From NCBI GenBank assembly GCA_001724265.1, contig MEDY01000083.1:1-64000 (forward strand): 64,000 bases of DNA, in the 5' to 3' direction. The notes beneath the pieces were generated by a model. The model worked only from the letters and a program-made list of their open reading frames with translations. It had not been told where the DNA came from and ran no database searches. Below are positions 24,633 to 64,000 of this stretch, in pieces (positions within the stretch are counted from its first letter, which is position 1; each line of letters begins with the position of its first letter). Made by a program: the position numbers and the translations under genes. The stretch is from Rhizaria sp. SCN 62-66. Its lineage: Eukaryota.

Positions 24633-24660
24633 CTCTCTCTCTCTCTCTCTCTCTCTCTCT
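24633..24660 (+). repeat. (CT)14 microsatellite in the aminotransferase 3' UTR
   Basis: Read directly. Confidence 0.95.
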
Positions 24661-36952: not shown

Positions 36953-37025
36953 AGCCGCATAGCACAGTCGGAAGTGCGCCCGCTTTACACGCGGGAGGTA
37001 ATGGGATCGAAACCCATTGCGGCTA
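36953..37025 (+). tRNA. tRNA-Val (anticodon TAC)
   Basis: Full cloverleaf: acceptor AGCCGCA/TGCGGCT plus discriminator A, D stem GCAC/GTGC, anticodon stem CCCGC/GCGGG with loop TT-TAC-AC, T stem ATGGG/CCCAT with loop ATCGAAA. Confidence 0.93.
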
Positions 37026-37032
37026 CGCTTAA

Positions 37033-37041
37033 TTTTTTTTT
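37033..37041 (+). terminator. Oligo-T Pol III terminator of tRNA-Val
   Basis: T-run 8 nt downstream of the tRNA 3' end. Confidence 0.8.
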
Positions 37042-42094: not shown

Positions 42095-42703
42095 CTCAGC
42101 AGTGACAACTAATGCTAAAGTATGACTACATTCTTTTACTAAGAAAGCAAGTTGTACAAGACGATTAACGATCTAATAGCCCTTATTTATTCTTAATTTT
42201 ATTAAAAGATAAGTGAATTAACTTATTTTTGTTGTGGATATACACAATTCTATTTATTTGTTCTTCATCTCTCTCATGTTTTTGTGTGTTAATGTTACGC
42301 CACTGACCTTTGGCATAGTATGTCTTACTTTTCTGGGAGTGTGCGCTTTAAAAATTAGCTAGATACTGTATAATAGATTCAATATTTCCTTAAAAATATG
42401 TTAATAGATCCATTCAGACTTGTATTCTTTCCCGAGATATTGTTTTGTTATATTTCGGACCATATCTTAATGCACACCTGTATTCTTTGCTCGGCGATTG
42501 CGGCCACCAACGGCTGGGGCGGGAAAGGTGGTCAATATCGCGCCAGGAATGTCTCGCTCCACGATCGAACATTTGGCATAAGACACAACTTTGGAGTATT
42601 TAAACGAATTGAGATATACATATTTTTACTAATGTATCAAAGGTCACAATCTAACCCTGTCATCCACACACTTTTGATTCGTCCTGAATCACTCTTTTCG
42701 CAG

Positions 42704-46662: not shown

Positions 46663-46920
46663 AACGAGTTCTTTTAACAAAGGACTTGAGTATGGCTTGA
46701 AGTGATATTGCATTGCAATTGTTGAGCTTGATTGAGTTCATGCTCACATGTGATGCCAGTCAATGATATTGTTTTGCGTTGTGTAATTGTATAATAAGAA
46801 AGAAATAAAGTGTATTATAGTTATTATTCAAGTCAAAATGATAATGTGATTGTCGTCTATATGTAAAAAGTGAAGAAAGTCTTCATGTGTGTGAGTTTAA
46901 AATGAGTCTGTTGTGGTAAC

Positions 46921-49900
46921 TTAGACCAACGAGGCACGGCGCCTCATGTCGATAACAGTGTCATCCACGTCTTCCTCTGCGTCAGCTTCAGCACGCACAA
47001 GCACACTCACAGCAGCAGCCATGGTGTTCGCGTTAGACTCACTGCTGCTGACGGCCTTTGTATGACTGCGGCTGTGGCTCTTGTTGTTTGCTGCAGCCGC
47101 TGCAGCTGCTGCGGAGGCATCAAGCGGAGCAGACGCCTCAAGTCCGAACGTGAACACATGTCCACGCTTCGGCGGTAACTCGCTCTCTCCAGCTGCTCTG
47201 GAAGAGCTAACATCGTCACCAATGTTGCGCGCCGGCATTGATTGGACTGCATTATTGTTACTAGCCGCAGATGCGACACTTGCAGATGTCGTAGCAGGAG
47301 CAGCTTGGCGCTGCTGGTGTTGATGCTGCGAGGTGGGAATGTTGCGAGTGCTAGCGGCAATAGCGGAAGTGTTGGTGTTGTTGTTTGTACGAGGCGTGAA
47401 AACAGTGTTGTTGTTCCTTGTCGCCAATACAACAGTTCCAGAGTTAGCAAAGGGCGTCTTGGAGCTTTCTGCGTTGTTCGCATTGCTAGCGCTCGCGTTG
47501 GCGTTCGCACGCGTTGTCGCGGGACTTGCAAGCGGCGACCAATGCGAGGGCGACGGGAGCGCCGACAGCACCACTTGCTGCTGCTGCCTATGACTGCTGC
47601 CGCTCGTAGCGTTGTTTGTGCTGCTAATGCTGCTGCTATTCGTCATAGTTGCGGTCAAAGACGTCGGGTCGCGGCCTTCCTTCCATGTGATATTGAACAA
47701 AGGGCAGTTGGCGTACTCGTCAACCATGGCAGCCGTCATCGACGCCGAGATGCCCTCGGACACACTCGCATTCGCGCCTGTAGCATCGCCAGCAGAGTTA
47801 CCACCAGCGTTCGTGTTGCCGCCCGCACCACCAGCAGCGTTCGCGGCAGCGGGCTTCTTCGCAGCCGCGGAGTCGCCGGCCTGCTGCTTGGTCTCGTGCG
47901 TCTGCTCGCGCTCCTGGTGCAGCTGCACCGTCGTCACGAAGTCGATCTCCAGCAGACGCTGCGACTTGCCCAGCCGCGCCTGCTGCAGCGACAGCAGCGC
48001 GGCAAACTGCTGCGTGCAAAAGACGCAGCCCGCGGTGGTGACGGGCTCGACCATGGCGGCGCGCTCGACGTGGCGGCCGTAGTACGCAAAGTCGTGGATC
48101 AGCGGGTCGAACCCTGTAAACACGGGCCCGGCGTGCAGGCCGACGCGCACTGTGGTCGTCGCAGGGAGACCCAGTGCGGTCCACTGAGTCTCGTTGACCT
48201 TGCCGAGGAGCTTAAGCGCAAACACGGCGCAGTCGATCGCGTCGGCAAAGACGCAGAGCAGACCGTCGCCCCAGGTCGAGGCGTGCTCAACGATGCTGGA
48301 CGACGCAGAGCCGCCGTAGCCGTGGGGCCCACCGTGCGCGCCGTGAGAGCTGGTGTTGCCGCCGGTGGCCGCCGCGAGGGCTGTCAGCGCCGTGCTGTTG
48401 CTGTGGCCGCCGCCGGTGCTCGCGCCGACAGCCGCGGATCCCAGAGGGATGACCGTGGCGCGACGCTGAGGTTGCGACTGAGGGCCGAGCGACTGCGAGC
48501 GCATCGGGTCAGCGTTTCCGGGGTTGCCCGCGACGCCCGCATTGCCGGAGTTGTAGTTGCCCATGCTCTCCATCGTGGTGCGCACTAGCTGCAGAAAATA
48601 AGCGTTGAACAGCGGCAGCACCTCTTCAGTAAGCTTCGAGTAGTTCTTAACGTCGGAGAAAAGCATGAAACGCTGGATACGCTTGAACTCGGAAGGGTAC
48701 ATGCGGTTCAGCGTGCGCGGAGACCGCTCGGGAGGATCGTTGCGCACGCGTGCGAGCCGCGTCGCGGAGGTTGGCAGGAAACACGTCGCGACCGACCAGT
48801 CTTGTGACGTGACAAGCGGCGGGAAAGTCAAGACTGAGTTGATATTGCTTCCGTGCGCATACGAGTTGCCGTTGTGGTGGTGCGTGTTCCCGTCGGCGCC
48901 AGCGGGCCCCATCCAGAGCGTGGGCGAGAGCGAGCGCGCGCCGGGCTGGGGACTGCCGCCATCGCCTTCGCTGCGTCCGCCGATCACTCTCGACATCGTG
49001 CCAGGGCTGACTGCCCGCGCGCCGCTTGCGAGATATGGGCTATTGGGCCGGCCGTAGTTGTTGTAGGTGCTGCCGTTGCCGTACGGTGAGTTGGGATCAG
49101 GCGACAGAGGCCGAGCCGCAGCGGCTGCAGCGCTCGAAATGACCTCCGTGGCGGGCACAAGAGGCGGGAGCGACAGCGCAGCCATCGCGGTGTCGAGGCT
49201 GACAGCGCGGCCCGGCACCACGCCACCGACCGTCGCACCAGCGTTAACACTCACATTCGCAGTGGCGTTGATAGCGGGCTTGTTCGCGTTAGCGTTACTG
49301 TTGCTGCTGCCGTTGATCGTGGTCGTGTTGGACAAAGGCGACGGTGACGGCGCCAGCGGAACAGAGTTGGCGTTAATGTTGGAGACGGAGCGGCGCTGCA
49401 CGTCGATCGTCTGTGTCATCGCAAAGCGCTTCAGCGGCGGTAATAGCACCATGCGCGCTCCGGTCCATGCAACGCCAGGACCCGAACCAGCACCGCTCTT
49501 GCTGTTCTGCTGCTGTTGCTGCTGCAGTTGCTGCTGCTGCGTCGCGATCGCCGTCGCCACACCTACAGTCGCGGCCGCAGCTGCAGCAACAGGATCGTTC
49601 TCAGCGCCCGCCGCAGGGGCAGTAGGCACGATAACTGCAGTGCCAGCAGGCGCGAACGCCGTGAGCGTGTGGCCGTGAGCAGAGGGCATCAGGAACGCCG
49701 GCGCCGCGACAGCAGCCAGCGCCTGTTTCACGCTCGCGGCGGCGAGAGTGGACGCGGGGACAGTGCGCAGCGGGATAACCGCGCCGGGGCCCAGCGCGGC
49801 CGCGGTGGCTTTAAGCGAGGCCGTGACGGCGGAGAGGACGGCGGGCGCGACGTTGTGCATCGCCGCCGCCGGCGTCGTGACCTTGCCGTTGCTGATGCTC

Positions 49901-52900
49901 GAGCGCCTGCCCAGGTTGAGCGACGCGATGCCGGGAACACTGGCGCCAGCGGCGACAGCAGCAGCGGCAGCGGCAGCGGCGGCGGTGTTCGCGGCAGTCG
50001 CTGCAGTGCTGCTGCCGTGTCCGGCCACCGCTGCGGCCGCGAGCGCCGCGGGCCCCGGCACGCCCGTCGCGATCGCGGTCGCCGTGACTGACTGCAGCGC
50101 ACGCGCGGCGCGTTTGCCGCCCGTGGCCGCCGCGAGCGCAAAGGGCAGCCCCGCGGCCGCGGCGCCGAGCATGTACGGGTTGGCGTGCGCGATGCTTACG
50201 CTGGCGGTCGCCTGCGCGGGGCTGGCGAGGGTCGCGACGTCCGTACTCGCGTAGGACGCGGCGCCGAGACCCGAGGCCGCCGCCGCTGCCGCCGCCGCCG
50301 CTGCTGCGGCTGTTGAACTGTGCGCCGCACCAGTGGCCATTGCAAGAGAGCCGCGCCGGCCGGACTGCGGCCTGCTGCCGCTGCCGCCCGTCGGCGTCAG
50401 CGGCGCGGCGGGCGCCGCAGTGCCTCCAACCGCGTTGATGCTCAGCGACAGACCAGTGAGCGCGACGCTGCCGCGGGGATTCATCCCAGCGACGCTGCCG
50501 CGGCGGCCTCCAGAAGCGGCCGCAGCCGCAGCGCTAGTGGGGTCGTTGGCGGCCATGACCGCGGCCGCGCTACCGATGGCGACCGCGGCGGCCACGGCCG
50601 CGTTGGCGGCGTCGGTGGCGGAGACCGCGGGCACAGGGAGCGGATACGCGGCGACGACCTGCAGACCCAGCGTGGCGGTGACCGAGCTCCACTGCGGCAC
50701 AACCTGCACAGCGAACTTCTCCCACGACGGGCACAGCGGCCAGCCGGCGCTGCCCGCGAGGTCCACCTCGTCCAGCTCGGTGCCGTAGTAATACAGGTCG
50801 GGCGCGTGCAGCCTGTGCGCCGCGCCGCCGTTGCCCTTGGCGCCACTGGTAACGACCGCAGTGCTGGCCTCCAAGTCCGAGTCCGAGTCCTCGTCAGCGG
50901 CAGCACCAACGGCGGCGGCGAACGCGGCCGCGTCAGAGCTGCGCTGGGCCAGCGCCGCGGCCTGCGCACGCGAGAGCTGCTGTTGGCGCTCGCTCTCAGC
51001 GCGACTGCGCGCGTTGGCCAGAATCGACCGGCCGCTGCCCGCAGCCGCGGCAGCTGCGGCGGACCCCGCGCCGCCAGCGGAGGCGCCGTGAGCGGCAGTG
51101 CTCAGGGCGCCCGCTGCGCGGGGGCTGCTGGCGTTGGCGCCGTTATTCGCGGCTGCGAGCGCGGAGCGACGGTTTTTGCGCGAGCGTTGCGCGCGTTGCG
51201 AGGTGCCGAAAGTCATAATGCGGAGCTTCTTGCTGCCGTCACCCTGCGAAAGCACGCCGACGTGCTGGTTCTCGTCATCGTCAGCGCTGTCGTTCTCATA
51301 ATCGTCATCATCATTGTCGTCAACACTGTCGTAGTCGTGATGCGTCCCGTCCTCATCTTCATTCTCGCTGCCGACAAAGCTGCCCATCCCGTTGTTCTCG
51401 TCATCGCTGTTCAAAGCAGCGTCCGTCACGGTGTTGCCGTTCGTGTTGTAATAGTCATCGCCACGAGAGCCTGAGGTGGCGGCGGCAGCGGCGGCGGCAG
51501 CAGCAGCAGCGCGGCGCGCGCGCCTCCTGCGATTGGCCGCCACCGTCGCTGCGCTAGCCGCGGCCGCCCGCGCCGCCGCAGCCGCCGCGGCCGCAGCCGC
51601 AGTGGCCTCTGCGCCGTGCACGTCCTGGTCGAGCTGGTCCGGGTGGTCCGCGAGCGCCAACAGCAGGTGCGGCTTGCCCGCCCTCATGTCGTACGTGCGC
51701 AGGATGGCGAGGCCCTGGCAGATGCGGCGGCCGAGCTCAAACAGCATGCTCCACGACGGGTCCGAGCGGCGGAAACGCTCCGTGGTGATGTAGTGCAGAG
51801 TGCCGCCCGCGGAGGCCGAGGTGACAACGCGGTCAAGACGCGCGCGCCACACACCGGGGTTCTCGTTGCCGTGCATGCCGCCCTCGAGCGCGTACGTGAA
51901 CAAGTCCTCCTTGTCGAAGAGCATGCATACGTGCAGCTCGAGTTGGCGCGACATCATCGCCTCGGCGAAAAGCACGTCAGCGTCGGTCAGCAGCAGCGTG
52001 AAACCGACACTGGGCTGCAAGAGGTCGATTTCGCGGCAGATATGCTCGTACATCAGCGCGCGCAATGGGGAAGTGCCAAACTGCGCCGCATACGACGTCG
52101 TGTCGACCGGCTGCGCTGTTCCTGAGGTGGCGTTCTTGTTACTGGCATTAGCAGCAGAGTTAGCACTGTTAGCAGTGGGCGAGGGTGGAGCGTTACCAAA
52201 GCCGCTGTTCGTACTGTTGTTGGTGCTCGCGTTGCTGCTGTGCTTTGCAGCCGCAGCTGCAGCGGCCTGCGCGTTCATAGCGACCTTGGTGGAGATGTTG
52301 TACGTGTTGTACTCGTTCATGTACGTGTTTTGCGACACCTTTTTGCCAATCTCGACGTGGTGACTTGCAAAAACAACGACGCGGAAGGGCTTGTGCATCT
52401 CGAGCAGCTTCGTCACTACCGTGGGGTACGGCTTGGCAAACTGCAGCAGCCGCAGCATCAGCGTCGAGTCACCGAGGCATGCCAGCGCGTGGCGCTTGTT
52501 TGCCATCAACGAGCTCTGCGCCAGCGCGCGCTGCTGCCACAGCGTCGCATCGCGCCGCTGGCCCAGGATCGCGTACGCTCGCGCCATGAACGACAGCATG
52601 CGGTAGCGGTTCTCCTCGGAGCGCTCGCGGCGCGTCTGCACGAGCTCCGACAGCGCGGTCGCGTCGAGGCGCGCGCGCAGACGGCGGCGGCGCGAGCGCT
52701 GCTGGCGCGCCTCGTGGCGAGCGGCGCGCTGGCTCGCGTCGGCGTCGGACTCGACCACGGCGGTGGAGCCGGCTACGAGGGCGCGGGAGCGCGAGCGCTT
52801 CGCCTTGGTCATCGACGAGTCTGTGTCGGACGCGCTGGCGTTGTTTGCAAGCGCAGTGGAAGCGACTGCGGAAGTGAGTGACGGGACGCGGGCAAGATCA

Positions 52901-55900
52901 ATGCCTCCGCCGCGAACGGGCGGCAGCGGCAGAGCGAGAGCGGTGCTGCTGCTGCTGCTGCCGTTGCGGGTGGGGCGGCGCGAGGGAACCGAGAGCCCGG
53001 ACTGGACCTTGCGGAGGTCCGCGTTGTGCCAGAGCACGATGTGGTCGCGCACGAGAGCCCAGAGCTCCAGCGAGCGGCGGCGCAGACGCGCGCGCACACG
53101 CTGGGCGGCGACACTACTGCTACGATTTCGCTGCTGGGAGGACGAGCGCGAGTGCGAGGCTGATTCAAAGGCAGATGACTCGTCGTCCGTCGTGACGCTG
53201 TCAGTGTTGTTGCCTTCCATGTCGCTGTTGGCGCCGTTGCAGGTTCCGTTGTTCTCTGCATCTTCGTCGCTGTCGTCCTCATCACTGTTGTCGCCGTAGT
53301 CGTCGTCGTTCTGCGAGAGCAGTAGCGCCATCTCTTCGTCTTCGATGCGCGCCTTGCGCGTCGCGTCGACGAGCTCGTGCGCGACAATGCTCACCACGTG
53401 CTTCGCCACCGCCTCGGCCTTGTTGAGCTGGCCGGTCACGAGAAGCATCGACGCCGCGTTGATTGCAGCGCGCGGCGAGCGTGTGAGCCGGAAAGCTTGA
53501 AGATAAAACCCTGCTGCTTCAAAGGCGAGACGCATAAGACGGTTGTCGACCATTTCGTGCGCACGCGCACGCAAGGTGTCGACGTAGCTCGCGGCAGCCG
53601 CTGCGGGGTCGACGTTGCTGTAGCTCACGTTGGCGCCGCCAGCACCTGCCGACGGCCCGGTCGTGAGGGACGGGGGCGGCGCTTCGCTGGCCATGGTGTT
53701 CATGTGCTGCGCGACGCTGCGGCGGTAGCGCAGACGCACGTACTGGTGGCGATCCTGCTTCATCTGCCCCGCCAGCTCGAGCACGTGCGAGCGGACTGCG
53801 ACGGGGTACTTGTTGTTCAAGTGTGCGGACCGAGCTGCAGCGCCTGCGGCGGCGGCGGCCTCCTCCATTTCAGCTGCGCTCTGCGTCGCGCGCTTGCCGT
53901 TGAGCTGCTGCTGCAGTTGTTGCTGCTGCTCAAGAGTCATCTGTAACACCTGCTGTTGGTGCTGCAGCTGGGCCGCCTGCGCCGCCTTCAGCGTCTTGCT
54001 CCGCACGCGCGCGCCCACGACGTCGGCCTCTTCCTCGGCGTCGAAGATAGCAGTGAGCATCTTCTTCAGCTCAGCCTCGGCCATACGCATGTTGCGGCTG
54101 AGGTACAGAGTCTGCGCGTGGTAAAAGCGCATCCACACGTCGTTTTCCCACCGCGGGTCCTTGAGCGCCAGCGACGTCAGCTGCCACGCCTTGAGCGCCT
54201 GCTCATTCTCGATCAGCGTGCCGACAATGCGGCGGATCGCCTCGGGCTGCAGCGCCTGCGCGCCGAAGGACGAGTTGCCGTCTTCGGAAAAGACAATGAA
54301 GGCGTCAGCAAGCGCGGATGTGTAGTTGGGCGGCAGGTCCTCGGCCTCTTGCGGGTGCTCGTCGAGATCGCGGAGCATTTCCCACGCCGCGAGCAGCCCA
54401 GACTCGGAGCCGGAGGACGGCGGGACGAAGGTCGAGCGCCGCGACAGCGTCCGCAAAGCGGAGCCGGGCGACGCACCGGCTCTGGGGCTTGAGCCGCCGC
54501 CTGACGGGCTGCTCGAGAGGGGGCTGGGCGGCGACGGGAGAGGCGTGCGCACAGGACGCACCGACTGCGTTGGCATTGCGGCGCTGCTGGTAGCGCTCGA
54601 GTTGCTGGCTGAGGAGTCGGCGTGACGCAAGAGACTCAGGCGCGAGGTATTGTTGCTATCGACAGCAGTGCTGCTGTTTCCAGCGCTGTTTGCACTCCCG
54701 TTCGGTGCGCGGGCACCGCTCGTCGCGGCAACTCCAGAAGCAGGCAAAGCAGGAGCAACCATAATTTGCTTGATTCTAGCAGCAATTGCCGCGCTTGTAT
54801 TACCGACATTGCTGCTGCTGTTGCTGCTAGAGACAGCTGCTGCAAGCGCCGTCAACACAGACAGCGTGCGCGTTTGTGCCGCCGCCGCCAGAGGCTTGTG
54901 TGGCGCCTGCGGGGACCGCGCGAGCAGGCTCGCCATCGCCGCGGACCGGAACTGACGCAGCAGCTGCAGCGCGCCCGTCGCGACGCGCGGCGGCAGCGTG
55001 TACGTGCTGCTATGCACGCCAGAGCCAACGCCCTGGTGTTGCGGCTGCGTCAGCTGCGCGAAGGGCAGGAACTGCAGCGAGAGAACCTCCAGGGCGAGGG
55101 ATGCAAGCACGGACGCAAGGTCAGACTGCGGCGCTAAGGCCTCAATGTTGATGACGACGCGCTTAGTGCCCATCAGCATCACCATCGTTGTCGCCGCCGC
55201 AGCGGCGTTCGCATTGGCACCACTGCTTTCTGCGGCGCCACCAGAGTTCGTAGTTGCAGCAGTGGGCGACTTCGCGTTGTTGTTGTTGCTGTTGCTGTCG
55301 CCGCTAGTGCTCGTTGTAATCGCAGGACTGGCAGTCGCTGTGCTTGCGGCTGCAGGGGCGCGGGCAGTAACGCTGCCAACAGCAGCTGGCGCAAAGCCCT
55401 TGAGAGTCATGCTGCTCGCGCGCCTGTGACTCCCGATAACGCGCGCACTCAACGAGCCACCAGGACTCGCACTGGCGCTGGCGCCGGCGGCACTAGTCAC
55501 AGCGACCGTGGTGGCCGCGGTGTTGTTTGCAAGGGAGGCGACAGGAGCGGCCGTGGGCACTGCAGCAACAGCTTTCGCTGTGTTCCGTCCGTGAGCGGCG
55601 CCAGTGTTTGCCGACGGCACAGGAATGACAACCGTCGCTAGCAAGCCGTGACCAAGCGGCCCGAACATCGCCCTTGCAGCGGCATTCACACCGCTGACAA
55701 CGTTGCCGTTGCTGGCGATGTTCGTGCCGTTCGTGTGAGCGAAGAGGAGGGAGGGTGAAATGAGTTGTCCCCAAGCCGGCAGGCCAAAATCGCAGGGGAA
55801 CGCGGCCACGTGGGTCGGCAAAGCGATGAGACTCTCCTTGAGCACCGCAGCAGCCGCAGCAGCAGCCGCAGCCACAGCAGCACTCGTAGCCCCTGCACCT

Positions 55901-58900
55901 GCACCTGCACCACTGGTGGCCGCGCTTGCAGCGCTGGCGTTGGCGTTAGCCGCAGTAGTAGCGCCGCCGGCATTGCCACCGCTGGATTTCGCCACGGAGG
56001 CGAGCGACTCCCATACCGCGCCTTCGCTCTGCGAGATGTCGAGCGGCCGCGGGACGCGCACGCTGCCCACGGTCACGCCGGCGACCTCGCGCGGCAGCGA
56101 GAGACGGAACAGCAGACACGTGTCGTAGTTCTTGGCGAGGTCGCGGAAGCCGAGGAACTCGCACGTGAGCGGCGCCTGCAGGTCAGCCTTGGCGAGCGCG
56201 CGGATCGAGTCTGGGTGTGACGGTGACTTGTTCGTGCCGCCGTTGCCGCCCGCACCGTTGGCGTCGTCGTCATCGTGGTCGCCGCTGTAGTTCGGCTGCG
56301 CAGAAGAAAGCTTACTCTTGCTCTTCCGGCCGTTGCCGTTCAGACTGCTCCCGCCGCGACCACGACGAGCACCGTTGCTGCTGTCAGCCGCGTCGGTGGT
56401 CACGCGGGCAGCGCGGCGGTGAGAGGGCTGGGCAGCGGGAGCGCCGTCGGGTTGCCTCGGCGTGATGCTGCTTCCAGCCGCGTTCTTGCCGGTATCAGCG
56501 CTGACAGAACCCTTGCGTTTCATGCTGTGAGCAGTGGAGCGCGCGTGTTTGCGCAGCGATTCGTCGTCACCAGCGGTTTCATCGTCGTCATCGTCATCGT
56601 CGTCGTCATCATCGTCGTTGTTTTTGCGACCACGCTGCGACTTGCTGTGGTTGGCACCGCGCATCTCAGCCTCCGCCGCTGCGGCCTCTTCCGCAGCCTC
56701 AGCGGCCTCCACCGCAGCAGCGGCGTTGCCGCACACGAGCGCAGTCGGCAAACCAAGCGCGCGCAGCGTAGCGATGCGCAGTTGCATCTCTTCTTGCTGG
56801 TTCAGAGGACGCTTGTACACGGAGCTGCCACTAGATGTCGTGTCTGCGCTCGCACTTGTGGCATGGCTGTTGTTCTTGTTGCGACTCGTGTGACCAGTCG
56901 AGCTCTCACTTCCGTGCTCAGCAGCGCCAGCGTTTGCAGTAATGGCGTTCACGTTCGCGCCACTGCTTGAGCTCGGACCGATGGCGACGGTCGTGGCCCA
57001 GCGCAAACGAGTCCCAGGCGCAGCGCCAATCGCCTCGGCCGCGGGGCCCGTGGCGGGGACGTTGCCGAAGCCGGCCGAGCCGAGTGCGAAGGCGCCTTGC
57101 GAGTAGAGCGACGAGGCGTCGGGAGACGAGTAGTGGTGGAAGAGCGCGCAGACAAACTGCTCGGAGGCAAGGATGCAGCCTGCGGGCGTGACGGCCTTGA
57201 TACGCGCGGCGCGGCAGACGTGGGCGCCGAAGTAGCACATCTTGCCCATGACGGGGTTGTAGCCGGGGAAGACGGGGCCGGCGTGGAGGCCGAGCCGCAC
57301 GTTGGTGTTGGCTGCAAGCCCAAGCGATGCCCAGGAAATGCGCTTCATGTGCTGGATGAGCTGGATGCCGAACGACGCGCAGCCCTGCACGGAGTCAAAC
57401 ACGCAGTAGAGACCGCTACCCCAGTTCTCCGTGTACACAGGCACATAGCCAGTGGTTTCGGCGACTTCCATGAGCACGCTGTAAAAGCGGCGGTAAAATC
57501 GCGGCATGTGACGCTCCATGAGCAAGTCTACGTTGCTGACGTCGGCAAAGAAGAAGTAGCGCACGACACGCGGTGCATTGAGCGCAGCCTTCATCGCGCT
57601 CGCCAGGTCCAAGCTCGCCTCCGCAGTGACACCCATGACGAAGCCGCTGTTCGTGGTGAAGGAGCTGAGCTGGGACTCCTCAGACTGAGAATCGGAGCTA
57701 GTTGGCGACGGCTCAGGCTGAATCTGCTGTCGTTGCAGCTGATCCTTCGGTGCGTTCGGATTGGTGTTCGCAGTTGCGCCCATGTTAGGACTTTGCTGCG
57801 GCAGAGCGCGCAGCGACTGGAGTTCGATTTCAGTGTACGCCTCAGCGCCAGTGGCAGAGAGATTGCTGTTCGCAGCGCCAGCGCGCTTGCTGCGCGTGCT
57901 TATACCAGCACTGGTTGGCGAGTTAACGCTCGCAGTCGGCGACGGCAAGGCTGTCGGGGACTGCGGCCTTGGCAGACTGTTGGCGTGAGCAGTTCCACTG
58001 CTGGTAGCAGTAAGACTCTGGGGCGACAGCGATCCTTGCCGCACGATGCTTGGAGTCGGCGACGGGAGACTGCTCACGGGCGACACGCTCGCAGCAGCAG
58101 CGCTCGCAGTCGTTCCAGCCCCAGGTCCAGCATTAGTACTGGTAGAAGCACTGGTTCGCGCGGTCGAGCCAGACTTGGCGGCGTTCGCAGCAGCCACTGA
58201 CTGACTGCCGTCCTTAAAGATCTTTGTCTTCCCGGCAAGCCAGGTTTCAAGCGCGCCAGCAACGCCCAGCTTGGCGATAACAGCCGCGGCAATCGTGCCC
58301 GGCAGTGCGGGGCACAGCCTGCGGTGCTCCGAGAAGGGCAGCTTGCTCAGCGACGTGTAGGTCAGCGTCGCGGCCGTGTCGGCCGAGAAGGCCGAGGCCT
58401 GGGCGCGGCGCGTCTTGATCTGCGCGATCGACGCCCAGGACATGTTTAGGCCTTCGAGCTGAGTCAAAACAGGGACGTTCACAGCATTGGCGCCAACAGC
58501 GGTGCTTGAGCTGTTACTCGCGGCGCTGTTGGCGTTGTTGGCAGCAGCAGCGCGAGCGCGGGCTCCTGAGCGCGAGTTGTTGTTCGCTTCAGCCTCGGAG
58601 GGCTGCGGCTTGGCACCCGCGGCAAACGCGGTCGCGATTAACGTGGAAAGCGGGGTGACCGTGGGCACCGGGCCGGCGTACAGGAGCGGCAGCCCCGGGG
58701 CGAGCAGCAGCGGCAGACGCGCGCGCACGGTGGCCGACACGGTGACCGTGAGCGACAACGGAGCGCGGGAAGACGCGTTCGCGAGCGCAGTCGCCGTGTT
58801 GGCCGCAGCGGCAGCAACGGCAACGGCGGCCGAGGGTGCGTTGTCACCCTTCGCGACACCAGCAGTAGCCCCAGGGGCAGCCTTCGCGCTCGCGCCAGCA

Positions 58901-61900
58901 CCAGCGTTCGTGGAGCTTGCGGTGCTGGCAGCAGCCGCCCTGCCAGTGCTAGAGCTGTTATTGGCAAACGCGAGCGCGTCAACGGCGCCCGCGCTGATGT
59001 ACGCCTGCGCCTCGCGCTCCACGGCGCCGCCGCGGCCAGTCAGGTCGCCCAGCGCGGCGTCCTTGCCCGCCGCAGCCGCGGCCGCGGCGTGCGCCAGCAG
59101 GAACTGCAGCGACGCGCGCGGGAGAACCCAGGCCGCGCGGCCGTGCGACAGAGCGCAGGCGGCGAGGTCGTCGGCGAGCTTGAGACGCAAACTGAAGATG
59201 TCGATGAGCTCGACGGCGTGGCCGGCGGTCTCCCAGTCAAGGATGAATGACTCGACGGGACCGATGGGGAAGCGGTGGTAGTGAACAGTGAACTGTACAG
59301 GGGGAGCTTCGAAGATAGTCGCAGCGGTGGAGCTAGAACCAGTGCCATTGTTCGTATTGTTGTTGCTACCGTTGGCGTTGACAGTGCCATGGTTCACGCC
59401 GCGCGGGTACGCAGAGGTCGAGGTGCCAAGGTTGAAGCCATCCTCAACGAGAACGTTACCCGAGACAACACCAGACACTGAATACTTCTTCGCACTATTT
59501 TTTGTGTTAACAGCAACAATGTCTTCGTCGACTGAAGCAAGCAGCTGTGAAACAGTGTCCATGGCAATGGAGTGGCGCCTCGCACGGCCAGCCTCTGTGT
59601 TGCCGTCCGCACCGTCGTCATCGAAGCTCTGACTGTCGCCAAAACTGGAGTTGGGGGCATCACGCGTGCTTGAGTTTTTATCATCGGCGGTGCCCTGGTT
59701 CCTCCGACCATTTCCACCAGCACCAGCGTTGTTGCGCGCAGTGGCAGCGCCTGGCTTTGAGTTGGCGTCTACGTTCGCGGCGGATGCCGTCGCGGCCGCA
59801 ATGCTTGACGCGGCAGCCGCCTCGGCGGCGGCTGCAGCAGCGGCGGCTGCAGCGATGTTGGCACGCTTCCTGCGCGCGTGCAGCAGCATGCGCGAGTCAA
59901 CGACGGACATGCACACGCACTTGCACGAGAGCTGCGAAGCCCGGAGATATGCCAGGCCCTTCATGCTGTCACGCGCAAAGTCGTACAGGATCATGTCGTT
60001 AAGGAACCGCTCGTTGGTGGTGTAATGCACGACCGCGCGCTGCAGCACAACCTGCGCGCGCGCGCGCCACTGCGCGAGCCCGTGTACGCTGTAGTCGACG
60101 GAGCCCAGGAAGAAGTCCTTGGGGTCGAACGGCACGAAGACGTGCAGCTCCGTGTTCTGCTGCAGCATGAGCTCCGCGAACAGCACGTCCGCGCCGGAGC
60201 AGAGGAAGCAGAAGGCCACGCGCACGGGCGGGAGCGTCGCCACGCGGTCCGCAATGGCGTCGGCCAGGCGCGCGCAGAGACGCGGCGTGGTGGGGTGCAC
60301 GGCGTTCATCGCGGTGAGCACGGCGAGCTCCTCGGCCACGGTCAGATCGCAGCTCAGCGAGGGGTCCGTGACTGCGACGGGGGGAATGTGAGTCGCTGGA
60401 GAGCCGTTGGTGCTATTGCTATTACCGCGGGCAGTGAGGGTCCGCTTGACACGAGACGGACTCTCAGGACGAGCGTTGGAGCTGTCGTCATCTGTGTAAG
60501 AGTTTGCGCCCATGTTCGCGTCGTTTTTTGGAGAAATGATAGGAAGTGATGCGATGGTCTCAAACGCACGATTCGGGCCAATATTAACACCAAGGCTGCC
60601 AGCAACATCATGCAGCGCACTCATGCTTGCAGCATTGGCCGCGCTCTTCGAAGCATTCGTCCCAGCAGAAACATTACTAGATGCGTCGTTCATGTAGAGA
60701 GAGCAAGGCAGCTTCCCACTGTTGCTGTTGCTCGTGTCGGCGTTTGCACTCGTCATGTGAGTCGCTCCACCCAAGTACGCACGCGTCGTGGGATCAACGC
60801 CGGCACGCACATCAGCGAGCACGCCCGCGGTCGCGATGTAGTGTGCGCGCGCAGTGATGAACGCACCGGGGGTCAACGCCGGGGTGAGCGACTGCGCCAG
60901 CGCGCCGCCGCTGTTGCTGCCGCCTGCGCCGACGGTGGGCAGGCCCGTGGTCGCGGACACCGTGGCGTGCGCCGGCTGCGGCCCGGCGTAGGTGACGTCA
61001 GACGCGATGCGCGCGGACGCCGGCGGGGGCAGGTCCGCGCGGTGGCCGCAGAAGACGAGGACGGTGCCGAACGAGTGCGGGACCTCGCCAATCGCGCTGT
61101 CAACAGAGGTCTTTTCGTCGCTGCTCCCGCTGCTGCTGCTTGTGTTGCTGGTAAACTTACGCGCAGAGTGCGACTGAAAACCGTACAGAGGGCAGATAAC
61201 GGCTTCAGCAGGCAGTTGCGATCCAGCCATCGTTGAAGCACTCGTGCTCGCGGCATTGGCGGCGTCAGCACCAGCAGTTGCGGGCCGTTGTCCAGGCGGG
61301 TTGTGCAACAGCGCGCGCACGGGCGCGCGCGGAAGCGTCGCCAGTCCGCTGGTACTGTAGCATAGGTTTATACCGCTCGCGCTCGCCAAAGCGCTGCCGA
61401 GCCGCGCCAGCAGCGACAGATTGAGCGAGTAGCCGTCGAGAGCAAGCAGGCTACCGCGGCTGAGGGAAGTGAGGCGCGACGCGCACAGGAAGCCGAACAG
61501 GCCGGCCTGCACGTACGACAGGCGCGACGGCAGAGGGGAGCCGGCGGCGTGCGCGCTGGACGGGCCCTTGAGTGCATGTGACGGTGACAGAATGCCTGTA
61601 GCGCCAGATCCAGAGCGCAGGGCGTTGGCGCTGCTGTTGAGGGTTGTCCGAGGCGCTGCAGCCACAGAAGAGGCAGTCGCATGAGCAACAGGCGGGGGCG
61701 GAGGGTACAGAACGTTGCCGTCCTCACCATTACCAGCGCCACCGAGACCGCTGATGCCGTCAAAGCCACCGCTGCCGCTGTTGCCAACGCTGCCAGTCGC
61801 GACAGCCGCCGTCCTGCCACCGTTCATACCACTGGTAGAGCCGGCGGTGTTGAACAGCGGAGGCAGGGTCAGAATGCCGCTATTGCTGAAAACGCCACTC

Positions 61901-64000
61901 CCGCTGCTCAAATTAACATTCGCATTGGCGCCAGCGCCGCCGCTTGACGTGTCGCGCGCAGTCACCGAGCCGCTCGCGTAGCCGCTGCCGCCGACACCGC
62001 CGCCGGCGCCCGACGCCGTGGCTTGGAGGGCAGCCGGCGCGACGGCGGGCGGCGGCGGCGCGCCCGTCGCAACCGGCAGCGTGGCTAGCGTAAGCAGCCA
62101 GGCGTGCAAGTCACTCGGTAGCGCCGTGGCCGTGGCACTGAGCTCGGTGACCAGCGGCAGGAGCATGCGGTAGAGGCCCAGCGTGACGGGAGAGATGGAC
62201 ACGACGGAGCGAGGTTCACTGCCACCAACAGACGAGCTCAGGCTCGCACTCGCGCCACTGCTGCTCGTGCCGGCGGCGGCGCCCGCACTAGCGCTGCTGG
62301 CGTTGGTGCTAGGGACAATAGGACGCTTGCCTGAACGGGAGAGGGGCAGCGCTGTCGCCTTGTCATTGTCCTCAACCGAAGCGACACTGCTAGCGTTGCT
62401 GTTACCGCTGTTGATAACACCTTCAGTGACAAGGCCCCACAGCACAGCGGTCGACGCAACGACACCAAGCGTGACAAGAGCCTCTGATTCGGCCAAGAGC
62501 TGTTGCGCCAGCGCTTGCGCAACGACACCGACACCCGAGCCGGAGCCCGCGCCATTGGTACTGCTACTGTAAGTGGCCGCGGCAATGAGTTGCGTAAGCT
62601 GACCGGCGCCGACGCCGGAGAGCGCCAGCGAGGACGGGGTGGAGAAGCGGCTCGGCTTGTTGTGCTCGGTGACACGAAGGGAGAGTGAGTCGAGAGCGAC
62701 TGGGGCCGCAACGCTAGCGGCGCTGTCGTCAGCAGTACTGTTGATTGCGTTGCGCAACGCAGGAGCGCTGGCCGCAGCAGAAGCTAGTGTTGAGGTGATA
62801 GCGACGCTGAATGGGGACGGGAACAACAGCATGTTACTGCTAACAATAGGCTGTTGTTGCTGTTTCTGCTGCTGCTTCTGAGGGATGGCAAGAGTGAGCG
62901 CAAGGGCACGCGCGCTCTCAAGGTCGTCAACACCGTTCGCACCAGCAGCACCGCCGCTGCCACTGCTATTGTTGCTGATGTTGCTGCTCGTCTTCCTGCC
63001 AGTGCCCTTGCGCTCCACACTCTTGCCCGACGCGCCCTTGCCAGCAGCGTTGTTGTTTTGCAAGGCAGCAGAGAAGTGGTTGAGCGAAAGCAAGTTGCTC
63101 GCGTCGGACGGCGAAAAGCTCCACGGCGCCAGCGCGCGCGTCTGGCAGTACAGTGCCGCAGACATCGAACGCGCGCGCGCAACGGCCTCGCGCGCGACCT
63201 GCACTGCGCGGCCCGGCTCGCCGGCGAGCAGGTGCGTCACGGCGGCGTTGGACAGCAGGCGTGAGAGCGAGTCGGCGCCGAAGAAGGCGTTAACGCTCGA
63301 GTGCTCACTCAGCGGGCTCTGGCTCAGCATCACGCCGCGGTCCGCGCTCGCGGTGGCGGCCACCGCTGCGGTGGCTGCGGTTGCGGACGAGGACGAAGCC
63401 GCCGGGGCACGGAGCCGTGCGCCCGAGAGAGACCTCGTCAGCTGCGACGGACTGGGCGTGCGCGCAAGGCCGCTGGGCAGGCGCGCCAAGTTCTGACTGC
63501 CATGCGCAGAGTGACCGTGCGCCGCAACGGTGACGTTGCCGGTCAGGGAGCCGCGCGGCACGCCGGTGGACAGCGTGCGCACGTGGCGCCCCGGCCCAGG
63601 ACTGCCGCCGGGGCTCAAAGCGACGACCGTCATAGTGGGAGCCGTCGCGCCCGTGGTCGGCGCAGAGCTGTTGGAGACGGAGGTCGAGTTGCCCATGCTG
63701 CCGGAGCCGGTGCCCATCATAAAGTTGGAGCCTGAGGCTGAGGCTGCAGAGGCAGCGGCAGCAGCGGCGGCGGCAGCAGCCGCTGCGAGCTTGTGACCAT
63801 GAGTAATAGTGGAAAAGATTGAAGTCAAACCGCCTTCACCCATGCGTGCAGCATTAGTGCCACTGCTACTCGCAGTGGTACTCGCATTATTAGCATTATT
63901 CGCATTGGTCGCGAAGTTCGTATTTGCACTGCCAGTCGTGTTGGTAACATTGGCCGCGTTCGTACTCAGCGACGACGTCGTGAAATAGTTCGGCAAAGCA
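46921..64000 (-). CDS. Giant (>5,690 aa, 5'-truncated) protein with two class-III nucleotidyl cyclase domains, two SLOG-like domains and a TPR-like region
   Basis: One open frame from the window edge to TAA at 46921-46923. Cyclase 1 is FFADVSN..WGSG..LGLHAGPV..RAARIKAVT (~57570-57140). Cyclase 2 is LFSDVKNYSKL..WGDG..VGLHAGPV..RAAMVEPVT (~48680-47990). The ADVLFAE..ELHV motif occurs twice. Confidence 0.88.
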   Translation of the reverse strand, partial: ALPNYFTTSSLSTNAANVTNTTGSANTNFATNANNANNASTTASSSGTNAARMGEGGLTSIFSTITHGHKLAAAAAAAAAAAASAASASGSNFMMGTGSGSMGNSTSVSNSSAPTTGATAPTMTVVALSPGGSPGPGRHVRTLSTGVPRGSLTGNVTVAAHGHSAHGSQNLARLPSGLARTPSPSQLTRSLSGARLRAPAASSSSATAATAAVAATASADRGVMLSQSPLSEHSSVNAFFGADSLSRLLSNAAVTHLLAGEPGRAVQVAREAVARARSMSAALYCQTRALAPWSFSPSDASNLLSLNHFSAALQNNNAAGKGASGKSVERKGTGRKTSSNISNNSSGSGGAAGANGVDDLESARALALTLAIPQKQQQKQQQQPIVSSNMLLFPSPFSVAITSTLASAAASAPALRNAINSTADDSAASVAAPVALDSLSLRVTEHNKPSRFSTPSSLALSGVGAGQLTQLIAAATYSSSTNGAGSGSGVGVVAQALAQQLLAESEALVTLGVVASTAVLWGLVTEGVINSGNSNASSVASVEDNDKATALPLSRSGKRPIVPSTNASSASAGAAAGTSSSGASASLSSSVGGSEPRSVVSISPVTLGLYRMLLPLVTELSATATALPSDLHAWLLTLATLPVATGAPPPPAVAPAALQATASGAGGGVGGSGYASGSVTARDTSSGGAGANANVNLSSGSGVFSNSGILTLPPLFNTAGSTSGMNGGRTAAVATGSVGNSGSGGFDGISGLGGAGNGEDGNVLYPPPPPVAHATASSVAAAPRTTLNSSANALRSGSGATGILSPSHALKGPSSAHAAGSPLPSRLSYVQAGLFGFLCASRLTSLSRGSLLALDGYSLNLSLLARLGSALASASGINLCYSTSGLATLPRAPVRALLHNPPGQRPATAGADAANAASTSASTMAGSQLPAEAVICPLYGFQSHSARKFTSNTSSSSGSSDEKTSVDSAIGEVPHSFGTVLVFCGHRADLPPPASARIASDVTYAGPQPAHATVSATTGLPTVGAGGSNSGGALAQSLTPALTPGAFITARAHYIATAGVLADVRAGVDPTTRAYLGGATHMTSANADTSNSNSGKLPCSLYMNDASSNVSAGTNASKSAANAASMSALHDVAGSLGVNIGPNRAFETIASLPIISPKNDANMGANSYTDDDSSNARPESPSRVKRTLTARGNSNSTNGSPATHIPPVAVTDPSLSCDLTVAEELAVLTAMNAVHPTTPRLCARLADAIADRVATLPPVRVAFCFLCSGADVLFAELMLQQNTELHVFVPFDPKDFFLGSVDYSVHGLAQWRARAQVVLQRAVVHYTTNERFLNDMILYDFARDSMKGLAYLRASQLSCKCVCMSVVDSRMLLHARRKRANIAAAAAAAAAAEAAAASSIAAATASAANVDANSKPGAATARNNAGAGGNGRRNQGTADDKNSSTRDAPNSSFGDSQSFDDDGADGNTEAGRARRHSIAMDTVSQLLASVDEDIVAVNTKNSAKKYSVSGVVSGNVLVEDGFNLGTSTSAYPRGVNHGTVNANGSNNNTNNGTGSSSTAATIFEAPPVQFTVHYHRFPIGPVESFILDWETAGHAVELIDIFSLRLKLADDLAACALSHGRAAWVLPRASLQFLLAHAAAAAAAGKDAALGDLTGRGGAVEREAQAYISAGAVDALAFANNSSSTGRAAAASTASSTNAGAGASAKAAPGATAGVAKGDNAPSAAVAVAAAAANTATALANASSRAPLSLTVTVSATVRARLPLLLAPGLPLLYAGPVPTVTPLSTLIATAFAAGAKPQPSEAEANNNSRSGARARAAAANNANSAASNSSSTAVGANAVNVPVLTQLEGLNMSWASIAQIKTRRAQASAFSADTAATLTYTSLSKLPFSEHRRLCPALPGTIAAAVIAKLGVAGALETWLAGKTKIFKDGSQSVAAANAAKSGSTARTSASTSTNAGPGAGTTASAAAASVSPVSSLPSPTPSIVRQGSLSPQSLTATSSGTAHANSLPRPQSPTALPSPTASVNSPTSAGISTRSKRAGAANSNLSATGAEAYTEIELQSLRALPQQSPNMGATANTNPNAPKDQLQRQQIQPEPSPTSSDSQSEESQLSSFTTNSGFVMGVTAEASLDLASAMKAALNAPRVVRYFFFADVSNVDLLMERHMPRFYRRFYSVLMEVAETTGYVPVYTENWGSGLYCVFDSVQGCASFGIQLIQHMKRISWASLGLAANTNVRLGLHAGPVFPGYNPVMGKMCYFGAHVCRAARIKAVTPAGCILASEQFVCALFHHYSSPDASSLYSQGAFALGSAGFGNVPATGPAAEAIGAAPGTRLRWATTVAIGPSSSSGANVNAITANAGAAEHGSESSTGHTSRNKNNSHATSASADTTSSGSSVYKRPLNQQEEMQLRIATLRALGLPTALVCGNAAAAVEAAEAAEEAAAAEAEMRGANHSKSQRGRKNNDDDDDDDDDDDDETAGDDESLRKHARSTAHSMKRKGSVSADTGKNAAGSSITPRQPDGAPAAQPSHRRAARVTTDAADSSNGARRGRGGSSLNGNGRKSKSKLSSAQPNYSGDHDDDDANGAGGNGGTNKSPSHPDSIRALAKADLQAPLTCEFLGFRDLAKNYDTCLLFRLSLPREVAGVTVGSVRVPRPLDISQSEGAVWESLASVAKSSGGNAGGATTAANANASAASAATSGAGAGAGATSAAVAAAAAAAAAVLKESLIALPTHVAAFPCDFGLPAWGQLISPSLLFAHTNGTNIASNGNVVSGVNAAARAMFGPLGHGLLATVVIPVPSANTGAAHGRNTAKAVAAVPTAAPVASLANNTAATTVAVTSAAGASASASPGGSLSARVIGSHRRASSMTLKGFAPAAVGSVTARAPAAASTATASPAITTSTSGDSNSNNNNAKSPTAATTNSGGAAESSGANANAAAAATTMVMLMGTKRVVINIEALAPQSDLASVLASLALEVLSLQFLPFAQLTQPQHQGVGSGVHSSTYTLPPRVATGALQLLRQFRSAAMASLLARSPQAPHKPLAAAAQTRTLSVLTALAAAVSSSNSSSNVGNTSAAIAARIKQIMVAPALPASGVAATSGARAPNGSANSAGNSSTAVDSNNTSRLSLLRHADSSASNSSATSSAAMPTQSVRPVRTPLPSPPSPLSSSPSGGGSSPRAGASPGSALRTLSRRSTFVPPSSGSESGLLAAWEMLRDLDEHPQEAEDLPPNYTSALADAFIVFSEDGNSSFGAQALQPEAIRRIVGTLIENEQALKAWQLTSLALKDPRWENDVWMRFYHAQTLYLSRNMRMAEAELKKMLTAIFDAEEEADVVGARVRSKTLKAAQAAQLQHQQQVLQMTLEQQQQLQQQLNGKRATQSAAEMEEAAAAAGAAARSAHLNNKYPVAVRSHVLELAGQMKQDRHQYVRLRYRRSVAQHMNTMASEAPPPSLTTGPSAGAGGANVSYSNVDPAAAAASYVDTLRARAHEMVDNRLMRLAFEAAGFYLQAFRLTRSPRAAINAASMLLVTGQLNKAEAVAKHVVSIVAHELVDATRKARIEDEEMALLLSQNDDDYGDNSDEDDSDEDAENNGTCNGANSDMEGNNTDSVTTDDESSAFESASHSRSSSQQRNRSSSVAAQRVRARLRRRSLELWALVRDHIVLWHNADLRKVQSGLSVPSRRPTRNGSSSSSTALALPLPPVRGGGIDLARVPSLTSAVASTALANNASASDTDSSMTKAKRSRSRALVAGSTAVVESDADASQRAARHEARQQRSRRRRLRARLDATALSELVQTRRERSEENRYRMLSFMARAYAILGQRRDATLWQQRALAQSSLMANKRHALACLGDSTLMLRLLQFAKPYPTVVTKLLEMHKPFRVVVFASHHVEIGKKVSQNTYMNEYNTYNISTKVAMNAQAAAAAAAKHSSNASTNNSTNSGFGNAPPSPTANSANSAANASNKNATSGTAQPVDTTSYAAQFGTSPLRALMYEHICREIDLLQPSVGFTLLLTDADVLFAEAMMSRQLELHVCMLFDKEDLFTYALEGGMHGNENPGVWRARLDRVVTSASAGGTLHYITTERFRRSDPSWSMLFELGRRICQGLAILRTYDMRAGKPHLLLALADHPDQLDQDVHGAEATAAAAAAAAAARAAAASAATVAANRRRRARRAAAAAAAAAAATSGSRGDDYYNTNGNTVTDAALNSDDENNGMGSFVGSENEDEDGTHHDYDSVDDNDDDDYENDSADDDENQHVGVLSQGDGSKKLRIMTFGTSQRAQRSRKNRRSALAAANNGANASSPRAAGALSTAAHGASAGGAGSAAAAAAAGSGRSILANARSRAESERQQQLSRAQAAALAQRSSDAAAFAAAVGAAADEDSDSDLEASTAVVTSGAKGNGGAAHRLHAPDLYYYGTELDEVDLAGSAGWPLCPSWEKFAVQVVPQWSSVTATLGLQVVAAYPLPVPAVSATDAANAAVAAAVAIGSAAAVMAANDPTSAAAAAASGGRRGSVAGMNPRGSVALTGLSLSINAVGGTAAPAAPLTPTGGSGSRPQSGRRGSLAMATGAAHSSTAAAAAAAAAAAASGLGAASYASTDVATLASPAQATASVSIAHANPYMLGAAAAGLPFALAAATGGKRAARALQSVTATAIATGVPGPAALAAAAVAGHGSSTAATAANTAAAAAAAAAVAAGASVPGIASLNLGRRSSISNGKVTTPAAAMHNVAPAVLSAVTASLKATAAALGPGAVIPLRTVPASTLAAASVKQALAAVAAPAFLMPSAHGHTLTAFAPAGTAVIVPTAPAAGAENDPVAAAAAATVGVATAIATQQQQLQQQQQQNSKSGAGSGPGVAWTGARMVLLPPLKRFAMTQTIDVQRRSVSNINANSVPLAPSPSPLSNTTTINGSSNSNANANKPAINATANVSVNAGATVGGVVPGRAVSLDTAMAALSLPPLVPATEVISSAAAAAARPLSPDPNSPYGNGSTYNNYGRPNSPYLASGARAVSPGTMSRVIGGRSEGDGGSPQPGARSLSPTLWMGPAGADGNTHHHNGNSYAHGSNINSVLTFPPLVTSQDWSVATCFLPTSATRLARVRNDPPERSPRTLNRMYPSEFKRIQRFMLFSDVKNYSKLTEEVLPLFNAYFLQLVRTTMESMGNYNSGNAGVAGNPGNADPMRSQSLGPQSQPQRRATVIPLGSAAVGASTGGGHSNSTALTALAAATGGNTSSHGAHGGPHGYGGSASSSIVEHASTWGDGLLCVFADAIDCAVFALKLLGKVNETQWTALGLPATTTVRVGLHAGPVFTGFDPLIHDFAYYGRHVERAAMVEPVTTAGCVFCTQQFAALLSLQQARLGKSQRLLEIDFVTTVQLHQEREQTHETKQQAGDSAAAKKPAAANAAGGAGGNTNAGGNSAGDATGANASVSEGISASMTAAMVDEYANCPLFNITWKEGRDPTSLTATMTNSSSISSTNNATSGSSHRQQQQVVLSALPSPSHWSPLASPATTRANANASASNANNAESSKTPFANSGTVVLATRNNNTVFTPRTNNNTNTSAIAASTRNIPTSQHQHQQRQAAPATTSASVASAASNNNAVQSMPARNIGDDVSSSRAAGESELPPKRGHVFTFGLEASAPLDASAAAAAAAANNKSHSRSHTKAVSSSESNANTMAAAVSVLVRAEADAEEDVDDTVIDMRRRASLV

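Follow-up and report, generated by a model that had tools for sequence, protein, structure and literature searches.

In class III nucleotide cyclases, as outlined in PMC4886424, one subunit contributes two metal-binding Asp residues to the active site and the other the base-specifying and transition-state residues. SLOG domains of the YpsA-like group, as presented in PMC9503650, include sensors of cyclic ADP-ribose (cADPR)-type molecules. Both kinds of domain are joined in compact bacterial proteins of 600–700 aa, which consist of a TPR-S region, a SLOG domain and a class III cyclase in a single module, and for which our literature searches found no functional study. We describe here a gene from Rhizaria sp. 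SCN 62-66 whose predicted product carries this module twice. It begins outside and ends within a stretch of 64,000 nucleotides (the window), which comprises positions 1 to 64,000 of contig MEDY01000083.1 (C83:1-64000) in a genome assembly of 34.9 Mb and 714 contigs (GCA_001724265.1). A preliminary description, made from the letters of the window alone, had proposed a giant soluble protein built from duplicated bacterial-type SLOG-like and cyclase domains with a TPR-like region, possibly immune-related.

The reading that we favour, with a probability of about 0.55, is that this protein is a soluble cyclase under some form of ligand gating, with one pseudo-heterodimeric site formed in a single chain by two domains that descend from one acquired bacterial gene. 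All of its domains are of known kinds; the doubled, catalytically divided and LRR-fused eukaryotic form and the genetic code are new variants. Our searches found no publication that deals with this architecture, whether bacterial or eukaryotic, and Burroughs et al. 2015 and Burroughs and Aravind 2020 may mention it. The preliminary description contained neither the way in which the two cyclases share out the catalytic residues nor the LRR or the non-standard code.

Layout and ancestry of the doubled protein

The C-terminal 5,692 aa of the protein are encoded on the minus strand of the window (46921..64000) by a frame, 46921-63999, that has no intron, ends with a TAA and is still open at its 5′ end. 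Beyond the window the frame runs on for 3,355 codons (9,047 in total) up to a TAG at C83:74065-74067, past which it stays open for 2,965 further codons. Taking the TAG as sense, as argued below, the first plausible Met at C83:82599 gives an intron-free gene (C83 82599 to 46921) and a protein of 11,892 aa, 49% of it low-complexity. The N-terminus that was missing from the preliminary description is thereby retrieved, with an LRR at C83:81877-82239 (minus strand), to which a profile of four relatives gave 27.4 bits, whereas none of 200 shuffles exceeded 3.0. It is followed on the same strand by TPR-S region 1 at C83:64954-65394 (family profile E 0.0016; 47% identity over 121 aa to an orthologue, L233), SLOG domain 1 at 59899..61068, with its first strand near 61056, a low-complexity insert of ~250 aa and its body at 59899-60282, and cyclase 1 at 56098..57663, whose core (57133-57663) is separated by an insert from the last strands (56098-56199). 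The second module comprises TPR-S region 2 at 52351..54234, which is interrupted by low-complexity inserts (family profile E 7e-8 and 7e-4, with matches to L233), SLOG domain 2 at 51652..52386, of YpsA-like fold and with a ~100-aa insert behind the first strand, and cyclase 2 at 47668..48786, recognized by Pfam and the family profile, with a ~90-aa insert behind the first helix. Since TPR-S region 1 was found outside the window, both modules own such a region, and the domain map of the window, together with the upstream LRR and TPR-S region 1, gives LRR-(TPR-S, SLOG, cyclase)x2 as the layout read from the sequence.

Much of what had been noticed in the letters alone has held up. The motif series reported to occur twice was recovered as nine motifs in one frame (61056, 60201, 60150, 52374, 51987, 51939, 53508, 53466 and 53418), and the TPR-like segment seen before the second copy is TPR-S by the family profile and recurs in module 1. 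A hydropathy scan with Ala down-weighted detected no membrane helix in the 11,892 aa, in accordance with the proposed soluble protein. The orthologue L233, encoded on a metagenome contig of 53% GC, has the same six domains in a single TAG-free frame that spans 6,157 aa or more.

Alignment of the two cyclases gave 44% identity across 99 aa (E 6.6e-27), and both exceed the Pfam Guanylate_cyc cut-off; the model of cyclase 1 (pLDDT 87) is of class III and matches RhoGC in Foldseek at E 3e-9. The two SLOG copies share 35% identity and copy 2 retrieves copy 1 at E 3.8e-12. Pfam scans of the giant protein gave no SLOG, TPR-S, LRR or YpsA match; an Atlas comparison led from the SLOG domain to YpsA clusters (0.85–0.86, a lead only). 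An AlphaFold model was made of copy 2 alone (pLDDT 74.8), copy 1 being a SLOG by homology. Structural comparison, fixed beforehand as the test of the SLOG proposal, yielded YpsA as the best match of this model among 48,161 chains (Z 12.9, rmsd 2.9 Å, 139 aligned residues). The top five were YpsA, ShosA and three DprA chains; DprA-type chains scored Z 7.6–9.6 and a LOG protein lower (Z 6.8). As judged from the model, the repeated domain is a three-layer Rossmannoid SLOG fold.

A profile of both SLOG copies retrieved 650 proteins at E<=0.001 from the 1.84 billion searched. This unindexed profile search succeeded where a word-based search with SLOG 2 had found nothing among 1,721 candidates. Domain scans of 30 of the 650 showed that the best matches are long LRR/TPR-S/cyclase proteins and that most others are compact proteins with TPR-S and cyclase. 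A family profile built from 72 compact relatives places two copies each of TPR, SLOG and cyclase on the giant protein. In this way it identifies both TPR-S regions, for which there was no direct Pfam match to PF20308 on the giant protein itself; the corresponding regions of the relatives P0005 and P0006 pass the PF20308 cut-off, and that of P0004 also matches. From their low-complexity inserts, the LRR and an apparent read-through intron in P0005, we infer that the relatives with the same layout are eukaryotic. The compact module also occurs, in P0014 and P0046, in fusions to NB-ARC plus TPR and to a protein kinase, with decayed cyclase residues.

The compact form itself belongs to bacteria: its Atlas clusters are 95–100% bacterial. 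We examined the best 80 of 515 stretches of bacterial genomes that encode relatives of cyclase 1; the counts out of 80 below refer to these loci, which are related to each other. Their sources are members of Planctomycetota, Verrucomicrobiota, Acidobacteriota, Pseudomonadota and other groups, and TPR and SLOG are encoded as well in 68 of the 80 cyclase-bearing open reading frames (ORFs). In a cyclase tree of 78 rows, from which P0004, a partial row, and roughly half of the bacterial ones were omitted, the cyclase-1 copies form a clade of 7 rows (support 100/99) and the cyclase-2 copies one of 4 rows plus P0074 (95/96). Both clades sit inside a planctomycete-rich bacterial subclade (98/94), and the eight other cyclase domains of the genome fall apart from them (98/98 split), so that the bacterial character claimed for these cyclases, as opposed to kinship with ordinary eukaryotic ones, was borne out. 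The SLOG tree (77 rows) unites all 13 eukaryote-type copies in one clade (SH-aLRT 96), and monophyly of the cyclase copies is not rejected (p-AU 0.358), both of which agree with the tandem duplication proposed from the letters. The simplest reading is a single transfer with a subsequent tandem duplication. We think it very probable that an ancestor acquired one bacterial TPR-S/SLOG/cyclase gene, which was duplicated in tandem and fused to an LRR.

Catalytic residues and possible function

The full homodimer-type set of catalytic residues is found within one domain in neither cyclase. Cyclase 1 keeps the first metal-binding Asp and the Arg, with Ser at the second Asp and Cys at the transition-state Asn, and cyclase 2 keeps both Asp residues, with Glu at the Asn position and Met at the Arg. 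The former is thus without the second Asp and the latter without the Arg, and the set is complete across both domains by alignment only, the Asn position being a Cys. The same division is seen in the doubled proteins, whose copies are not independent lineages: cyclase 1 has lost the second Asp in all 7 copies covering it and kept the Arg in 7/9, and cyclase 2 has kept both Asp residues in 4/5 and lost the Arg in 4/4. Among the bacterial single-domain forms the second Asp is present in 78/78 and the Arg in 70 of the 73 parsed. Neither domain should work alone, and together they should make up one complete site. The two cyclases would probably pair within one chain, with both Asp residues from cyclase 2 and with the Arg and the base-specifying pair from cyclase 1. 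At the positions aligned with the base-specifying residues of a guanylyl cyclase of solved structure, cyclase 1 has a Glu and a Cys, and such a pair specifies GTP as described in PMC7384201. Because it is common only to the giant gene, L233 and P0002, cyclic GMP (cGMP) as the product would be a guess for that sub-lineage, which we rate as an even bet.

The genes beside the bacterial relatives give some indication of what the ancestral module may have been used for. A TIR protein lies at most 5 kb away in 16/80 loci, an RyR domain occurs within the same distance in 21/80, and a few have STAND, VMAP-C, TCAD9 or NYN neighbours (44 ORFs scanned). In Acidobacteriota (L113, L143, L146, L151, L154 and L159) we observed a conserved pair in which a TIR gene stands upstream of one encoding RyR-TPR-S-SLOG-cyclase, a candidate for a putative defence system; PADLOC showed no model for the family. 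Planctomycete loci (L096, L104, L110, L106, L118, L129 and L163) adjoin TCAD9 plus TPR-S, DUF4062 plus STAND or VMAP-C, or NYN, and a small stand-alone RyR gene is often adjacent to the planctomycete copies.

We favour a nucleotide-gated cyclase because YpsA-like SLOGs sense cADPR-type molecules, because the Thoeris system offers a precedent and because of the TIR neighbours. SLOG and TPR-S may bind a NAD-derived nucleotide (e.g. an ADP-ribose isomer) and switch the cyclase on, with the LRR as an extra sensing or autoinhibitory input, a step to which we give slightly less than even odds. More tentatively, the trigger might be infection or an intracellular microbe; the immune role, which had already been thought possible, we infer by analogy from the bacterial neighbours. 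The fullest version of this scenario, which we find unlikely, would have a bacterial TIR-linked immune relay domesticated by a protist lineage as a two-pocket, LRR-fronted receptor that converts a NAD-derived alarm nucleotide into cGMP by means of a pseudo-heterodimeric cyclase of independent evolution, in an undescribed nuclear code with UAG as Glu and UAA/UGA as stops, where the UAG of eRF1 acts as a termination feedback switch and giant proteins with UAG in their genes reach full length only at high readthrough. The protein may be a further case of a eukaryote taking up a bacterial nucleotide-signalling module, and points to a relay in which NAD-derived signals are passed on to cyclic nucleotides. 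It would also be a one-site pseudo-heterodimeric cyclase that apparently arose independently, and since a compact bacterial progenitor is available the steps of catalytic division are directly testable.

Several of our results weigh against the gated one-site cyclase or against parts of it. Foldseek alone gave no SLOG match for the SLOG 2 model at E<=0.001 (YpsA was at rank 3, E 0.03). The cyclase-1 and cyclase-2 clades are not sisters in the best tree, and the SLOG tree is built on 128 columns only, with SH-aLRT support only. The 16 loci with a TIR neighbour were counted without a background control and include the query locus and one marginal match, and in 64/80 there is no TIR match within 5 kb. 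PADLOC found no match for 7 of 9 proteins and weak PycC and TPR matches for 2; the single PycC match among the nine (E 3.6e-5) is a weak one, and none fell on the window domains. P0008 and P0049 have lost the Arg of cyclase 1 and P0008 is also without the second Asp of cyclase 2, so that some relatives may be inactive. As to the product, the Glu/Cys pair is present in 3 of the 7 cyclase-1 copies covering its first position, the three named above, and the bacterial base-specifying positions are mostly Asn (67/78 and 51/78).

The same one-site cyclase might also serve ordinary signalling, for instance in motility, feeding or encystment, with a SLOG that senses a metabolite or is only structural. 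This would fit a single intact copy that is not part of a diversified family, the well-conserved cores shared with L233 (72% in cyclase 1) and the housekeeping types of the identified flanking genes. However, the neighbours of the bacterial progenitor include TIR, STAND NTPase, VMAP-C, TCAD9 and NYN, and the LRR and TPR-S inputs seem to us to resemble sensors of invaders, which makes ordinary signalling rather unlikely in our view. More improbable still is that both cyclases are pseudo-enzymes and the protein a nucleotide-binding scaffold. Conflict systems do contain inactive cyclase domains, as reported in PMC7159879, the full catalytic set is found in neither domain, and P0008, P0049 and the degenerate paralogue described below are further decayed; yet the losses are complementary and recur across relatives, which is not expected from random decay, known cyclases tolerate a missing Asn as described in PMC4886424, and the position varies in the bacterial family. 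A similarly low probability attaches to SLOG domains that are not sensors at all and instead make or destroy a nucleotide signal as LOG-like N-glycosidases. SLOGs of the LOG clade cleave base-ribose bonds (as presented in PMC9503650) and LOG proteins are among the structural matches, although YpsA and DprA-type chains match better, and the pocket glycines and His differ between copies 1 and 2, which would suit two binding pockets rather than one chemistry.

UAG as a sense codon and the surrounding genome

A further alternative concerns the extent of the gene. The TAG at C83:74065 could be a true stop or an assembly error, and there would then be two genes and a cyclase protein of ~9,040 aa without the LRR. 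A Met does sit seven codons past the TAG, which is the sole in-frame TAG among the 12,013 codons of the whole frame and thus a very rare codon there, and no listed RNA contig bridges the site. On the other hand, the single open frame of L233 matches both sides of the TAG, its first 65 residues aligning upstream with 40% identity (E 1e-10), in the relatives a single chain carries both the LRR and the modules, in-frame TAGs occur in kinases and eRF1 with a CUA tRNA present, and a DNA contig of run X3, possibly of the same strain or source, spans the TAG unchanged. We therefore consider two genes very improbable. Among the contigs listed for runs X4, X5 and X6 none lies over the TAG, and the short contigs on either side in RNA run X5 cannot show one transcript. 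An intron excising the TAG is also unlikely since its flanks are GC-rich and coding-like, which nearby introns are not.

That TAG is a sense codon in this genome is, we believe, highly probable. In 560 kb, stops preceded by coding-like sequence were also followed by open, coding-like sequence in 21/70 cases for TAG, compared with 4/84 for TAA and 4/95 for TGA. Among 142 kinase matches a lone TAG lies inside 9, a lone TAA inside 1 and a lone TGA inside none; five of the TAGs look exonic, and the other 4/9 as well as a kinesin TAG were set aside because they resemble intron ends. A tRNA with a CUA anticodon is present in a single copy at C84:76008-76080 (L085; Rfam 58 bits, with a T run behind), the one tRNA among six matches of a pattern search. 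The eRF1 gene itself has an exonic in-frame TAG at C63:103463-103465 (L230), at the position of human Glu107, and its product differs at Thr32, which is Ser (Thr in 119/119 aligned), at Thr58, which is Lys (Thr in 119/120), and at Gly57. In the window, an in-frame TAG at 39662 links frames of 373 and 809 aa in a PPR gene (38543-42094, plus strand). TAG was found within the last six codons of 3/82 probable gene ends, compared with 0.16 expected, which hints at a recent or leaky code change; one of the three is a DREV methyltransferase gene (window 10513-12156, plus strand), which ends in TAG, one more codon and TGA.

The amino acid is probably Glu. Of 120 homologues, 106 have Glu in the eRF1 column and 13 have Asp, and the closest one (86% identical) has Val. 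Over five TAG sites in domains the Pfam scores were 678.2 bits for Glu, 677.7 for Lys, 677.4 for Gln, 673.4 for Ser, 670.1 for Tyr, 669.1 for Leu and 665.7 for Trp, which places Leu, Tyr and Trp 8–13 bits under Glu. Gln, which like Lys ties with Glu in these scores, is disfavoured by the eRF1 column (0/120) and by the tRNA comparison: among the 37 other tRNAs of the genome, a set without Asp, Pro and Phe tRNA, the CUA tRNA aligned best with tRNA-Glu(CUC) (score 21, next 9.5), its raw identity to tRNA-Glu (47/73) being like that to His, Met or Thr tRNA (46–48). Glu was not favoured by neighbour composition, which ranked Leu, Phe and Pro highest in a set that included a contaminating antisense frame and, when repeated, His or Tyr highest with Glu 5–11 log units lower (windows of 2–5 residues); we take this test as deciding neither way, since a TAG newly arisen in a disordered region can carry over the context of its parent codon. 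In the published UAG-only codes, as described in PMC11687900, PMC5304391 and PMC10553269, UAG is Leu, Gln or Ser, and UAG as Glu accompanies UAA as Lys or the reassignment of both. Our literature searches found no UAG-only Glu code in which UAA and UGA are stops.

The code matters for annotation because gene callers that assume the standard code break off this gene and others at TAG, and it has a bearing on the question why reassignments of UAA and UAG usually go together. The TAG within the eRF1 gene is a possible feedback device and is relevant to whether eukaryotic release factors can use an internal stop codon for self-regulation; autoregulation of plant eRF1 is reported, by another route, in PMC5397192.

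The window was already known to encode a giant protein, and its great expansion, as the preliminary description had it, stands for length and does not for copy number, since we found a single intact gene besides a degenerate paralogue. This genome abounds in very long frames, among them other cyclase genes of 2,211–4,025 aa and a kinase gene of 7,102 aa, and the relative P0006 holds both modules within 2,884 aa; for these reasons the size of the giant protein is largely a habit of the genome. Further cyclase genes with very long frames lie at C96:105355-106617 (L022, L023) and C19:106149-106640 (L025), and two adjacent cyclase domains in one of them resemble soluble adenylyl cyclase. The degenerate paralogue (C201:~20200-37685, plus strand) has an LRR-like start and an in-frame TAG followed by a 5,431-aa frame, with two weak SLOG matches (E 5e-6 and 3e-5, single-sequence test) and undetectable cyclases.

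The flanking genes are of eIF2B, NOP9-like, CFAP91, PPR and SET types and an upstream gene has GT-AG introns, so the source is eukaryotic. Frames of 1,217, 878 and ~420 aa in the window, at 12459-16109 (minus), 42377-45010 (plus) and 45406-46737, had no Pfam match. Several monomer ubiquitin genes (C3:11235-14019, with L026 and L033, C168 and C182) begin with an extra Met-Ser, which may resemble a cercozoan trait; those visible to their end have a three-residue tail, and there was no head-to-tail polyubiquitin among the 8 loci read. The sequencing runs that contain this DNA are bioreactor, wastewater and activated-sludge metagenomes.

Comparison with described systems

The SLOG domain of the giant protein shares its fold with B. 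subtilis YpsA (PDB 2nx2), DprA and LOG (Z 12.9, 9.0 and 6.8) at 12% identity. The central TPR region of ASK1/MAP3K5 is homologous to TPR-S (family profile to PDB 5ulm, E 4.3e-8) and MAP3K_TRAF_bd matches occur in relatives, while the segments of the giant protein that were scanned contain no kinase or other ASK1 domain. In type I Thoeris, as described in bioRxiv 10.64898/2025.12.03.692087, ThsA combines a SLOG sensor with a SIR2 effector, and 3′cADPR made by TIR activates the fused enzyme. The giant protein likewise has a SLOG fused to an output enzyme, and TIR genes stand beside part of its bacterial relatives; unlike in ThsA this output is a cyclase, Pfam and PADLOC scans showing no SIR2 and PADLOC no Thoeris match.

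The code shares UAG as a sense codon, UAA and UGA as stops and a CUA tRNA with the UAG-only codes described in PMC5304391, PMC11687900 and PMC10553269, namely Leu in the rhizarian exLh, Gln in Iotanema and some ciliates and Ser in Scotinosphaera. As these sources present it, eRF1 Thr32 is changed to Gly in Iotanema, compared with Ser in this genome, and the ciliate PL0344 reads UAA as Lys and UAG as Glu, whereas here UAG is apparently Glu with UAA still a stop. Unlike in the codes compared, the eRF1 of this genome has an in-frame UAG in its own coding sequence.

Among proteins, the bacterial TPR-S/SLOG/cyclase family (PF20308 plus PF00211) is the direct homologue, with the same three domains in the same order. 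It has one module with a full catalytic set and often an RyR (21/80) or TIR (16/80) neighbour, whereas the giant protein has two modules, split residues, an LRR and ~49% low-complexity sequence. A parallel to the catalytic division is found in the mammalian membrane adenylyl cyclases, where one of the domains C1 and C2 supplies the metal-binding Asp residues and the other the Arg. These enzymes likewise have two class III domains per chain and go back to a bacterial-type gene that was duplicated and fused, as outlined in PMC9552081. In contrast to them, the giant protein has no membrane domains, its Asp donor is the C-terminal domain, so that the order is reversed, and its base-specifying pair is of the GTP type. 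As the cyclase tree places the source of its domains separately within bacteria, its origin appears to be separate from that of the membrane adenylyl cyclases.

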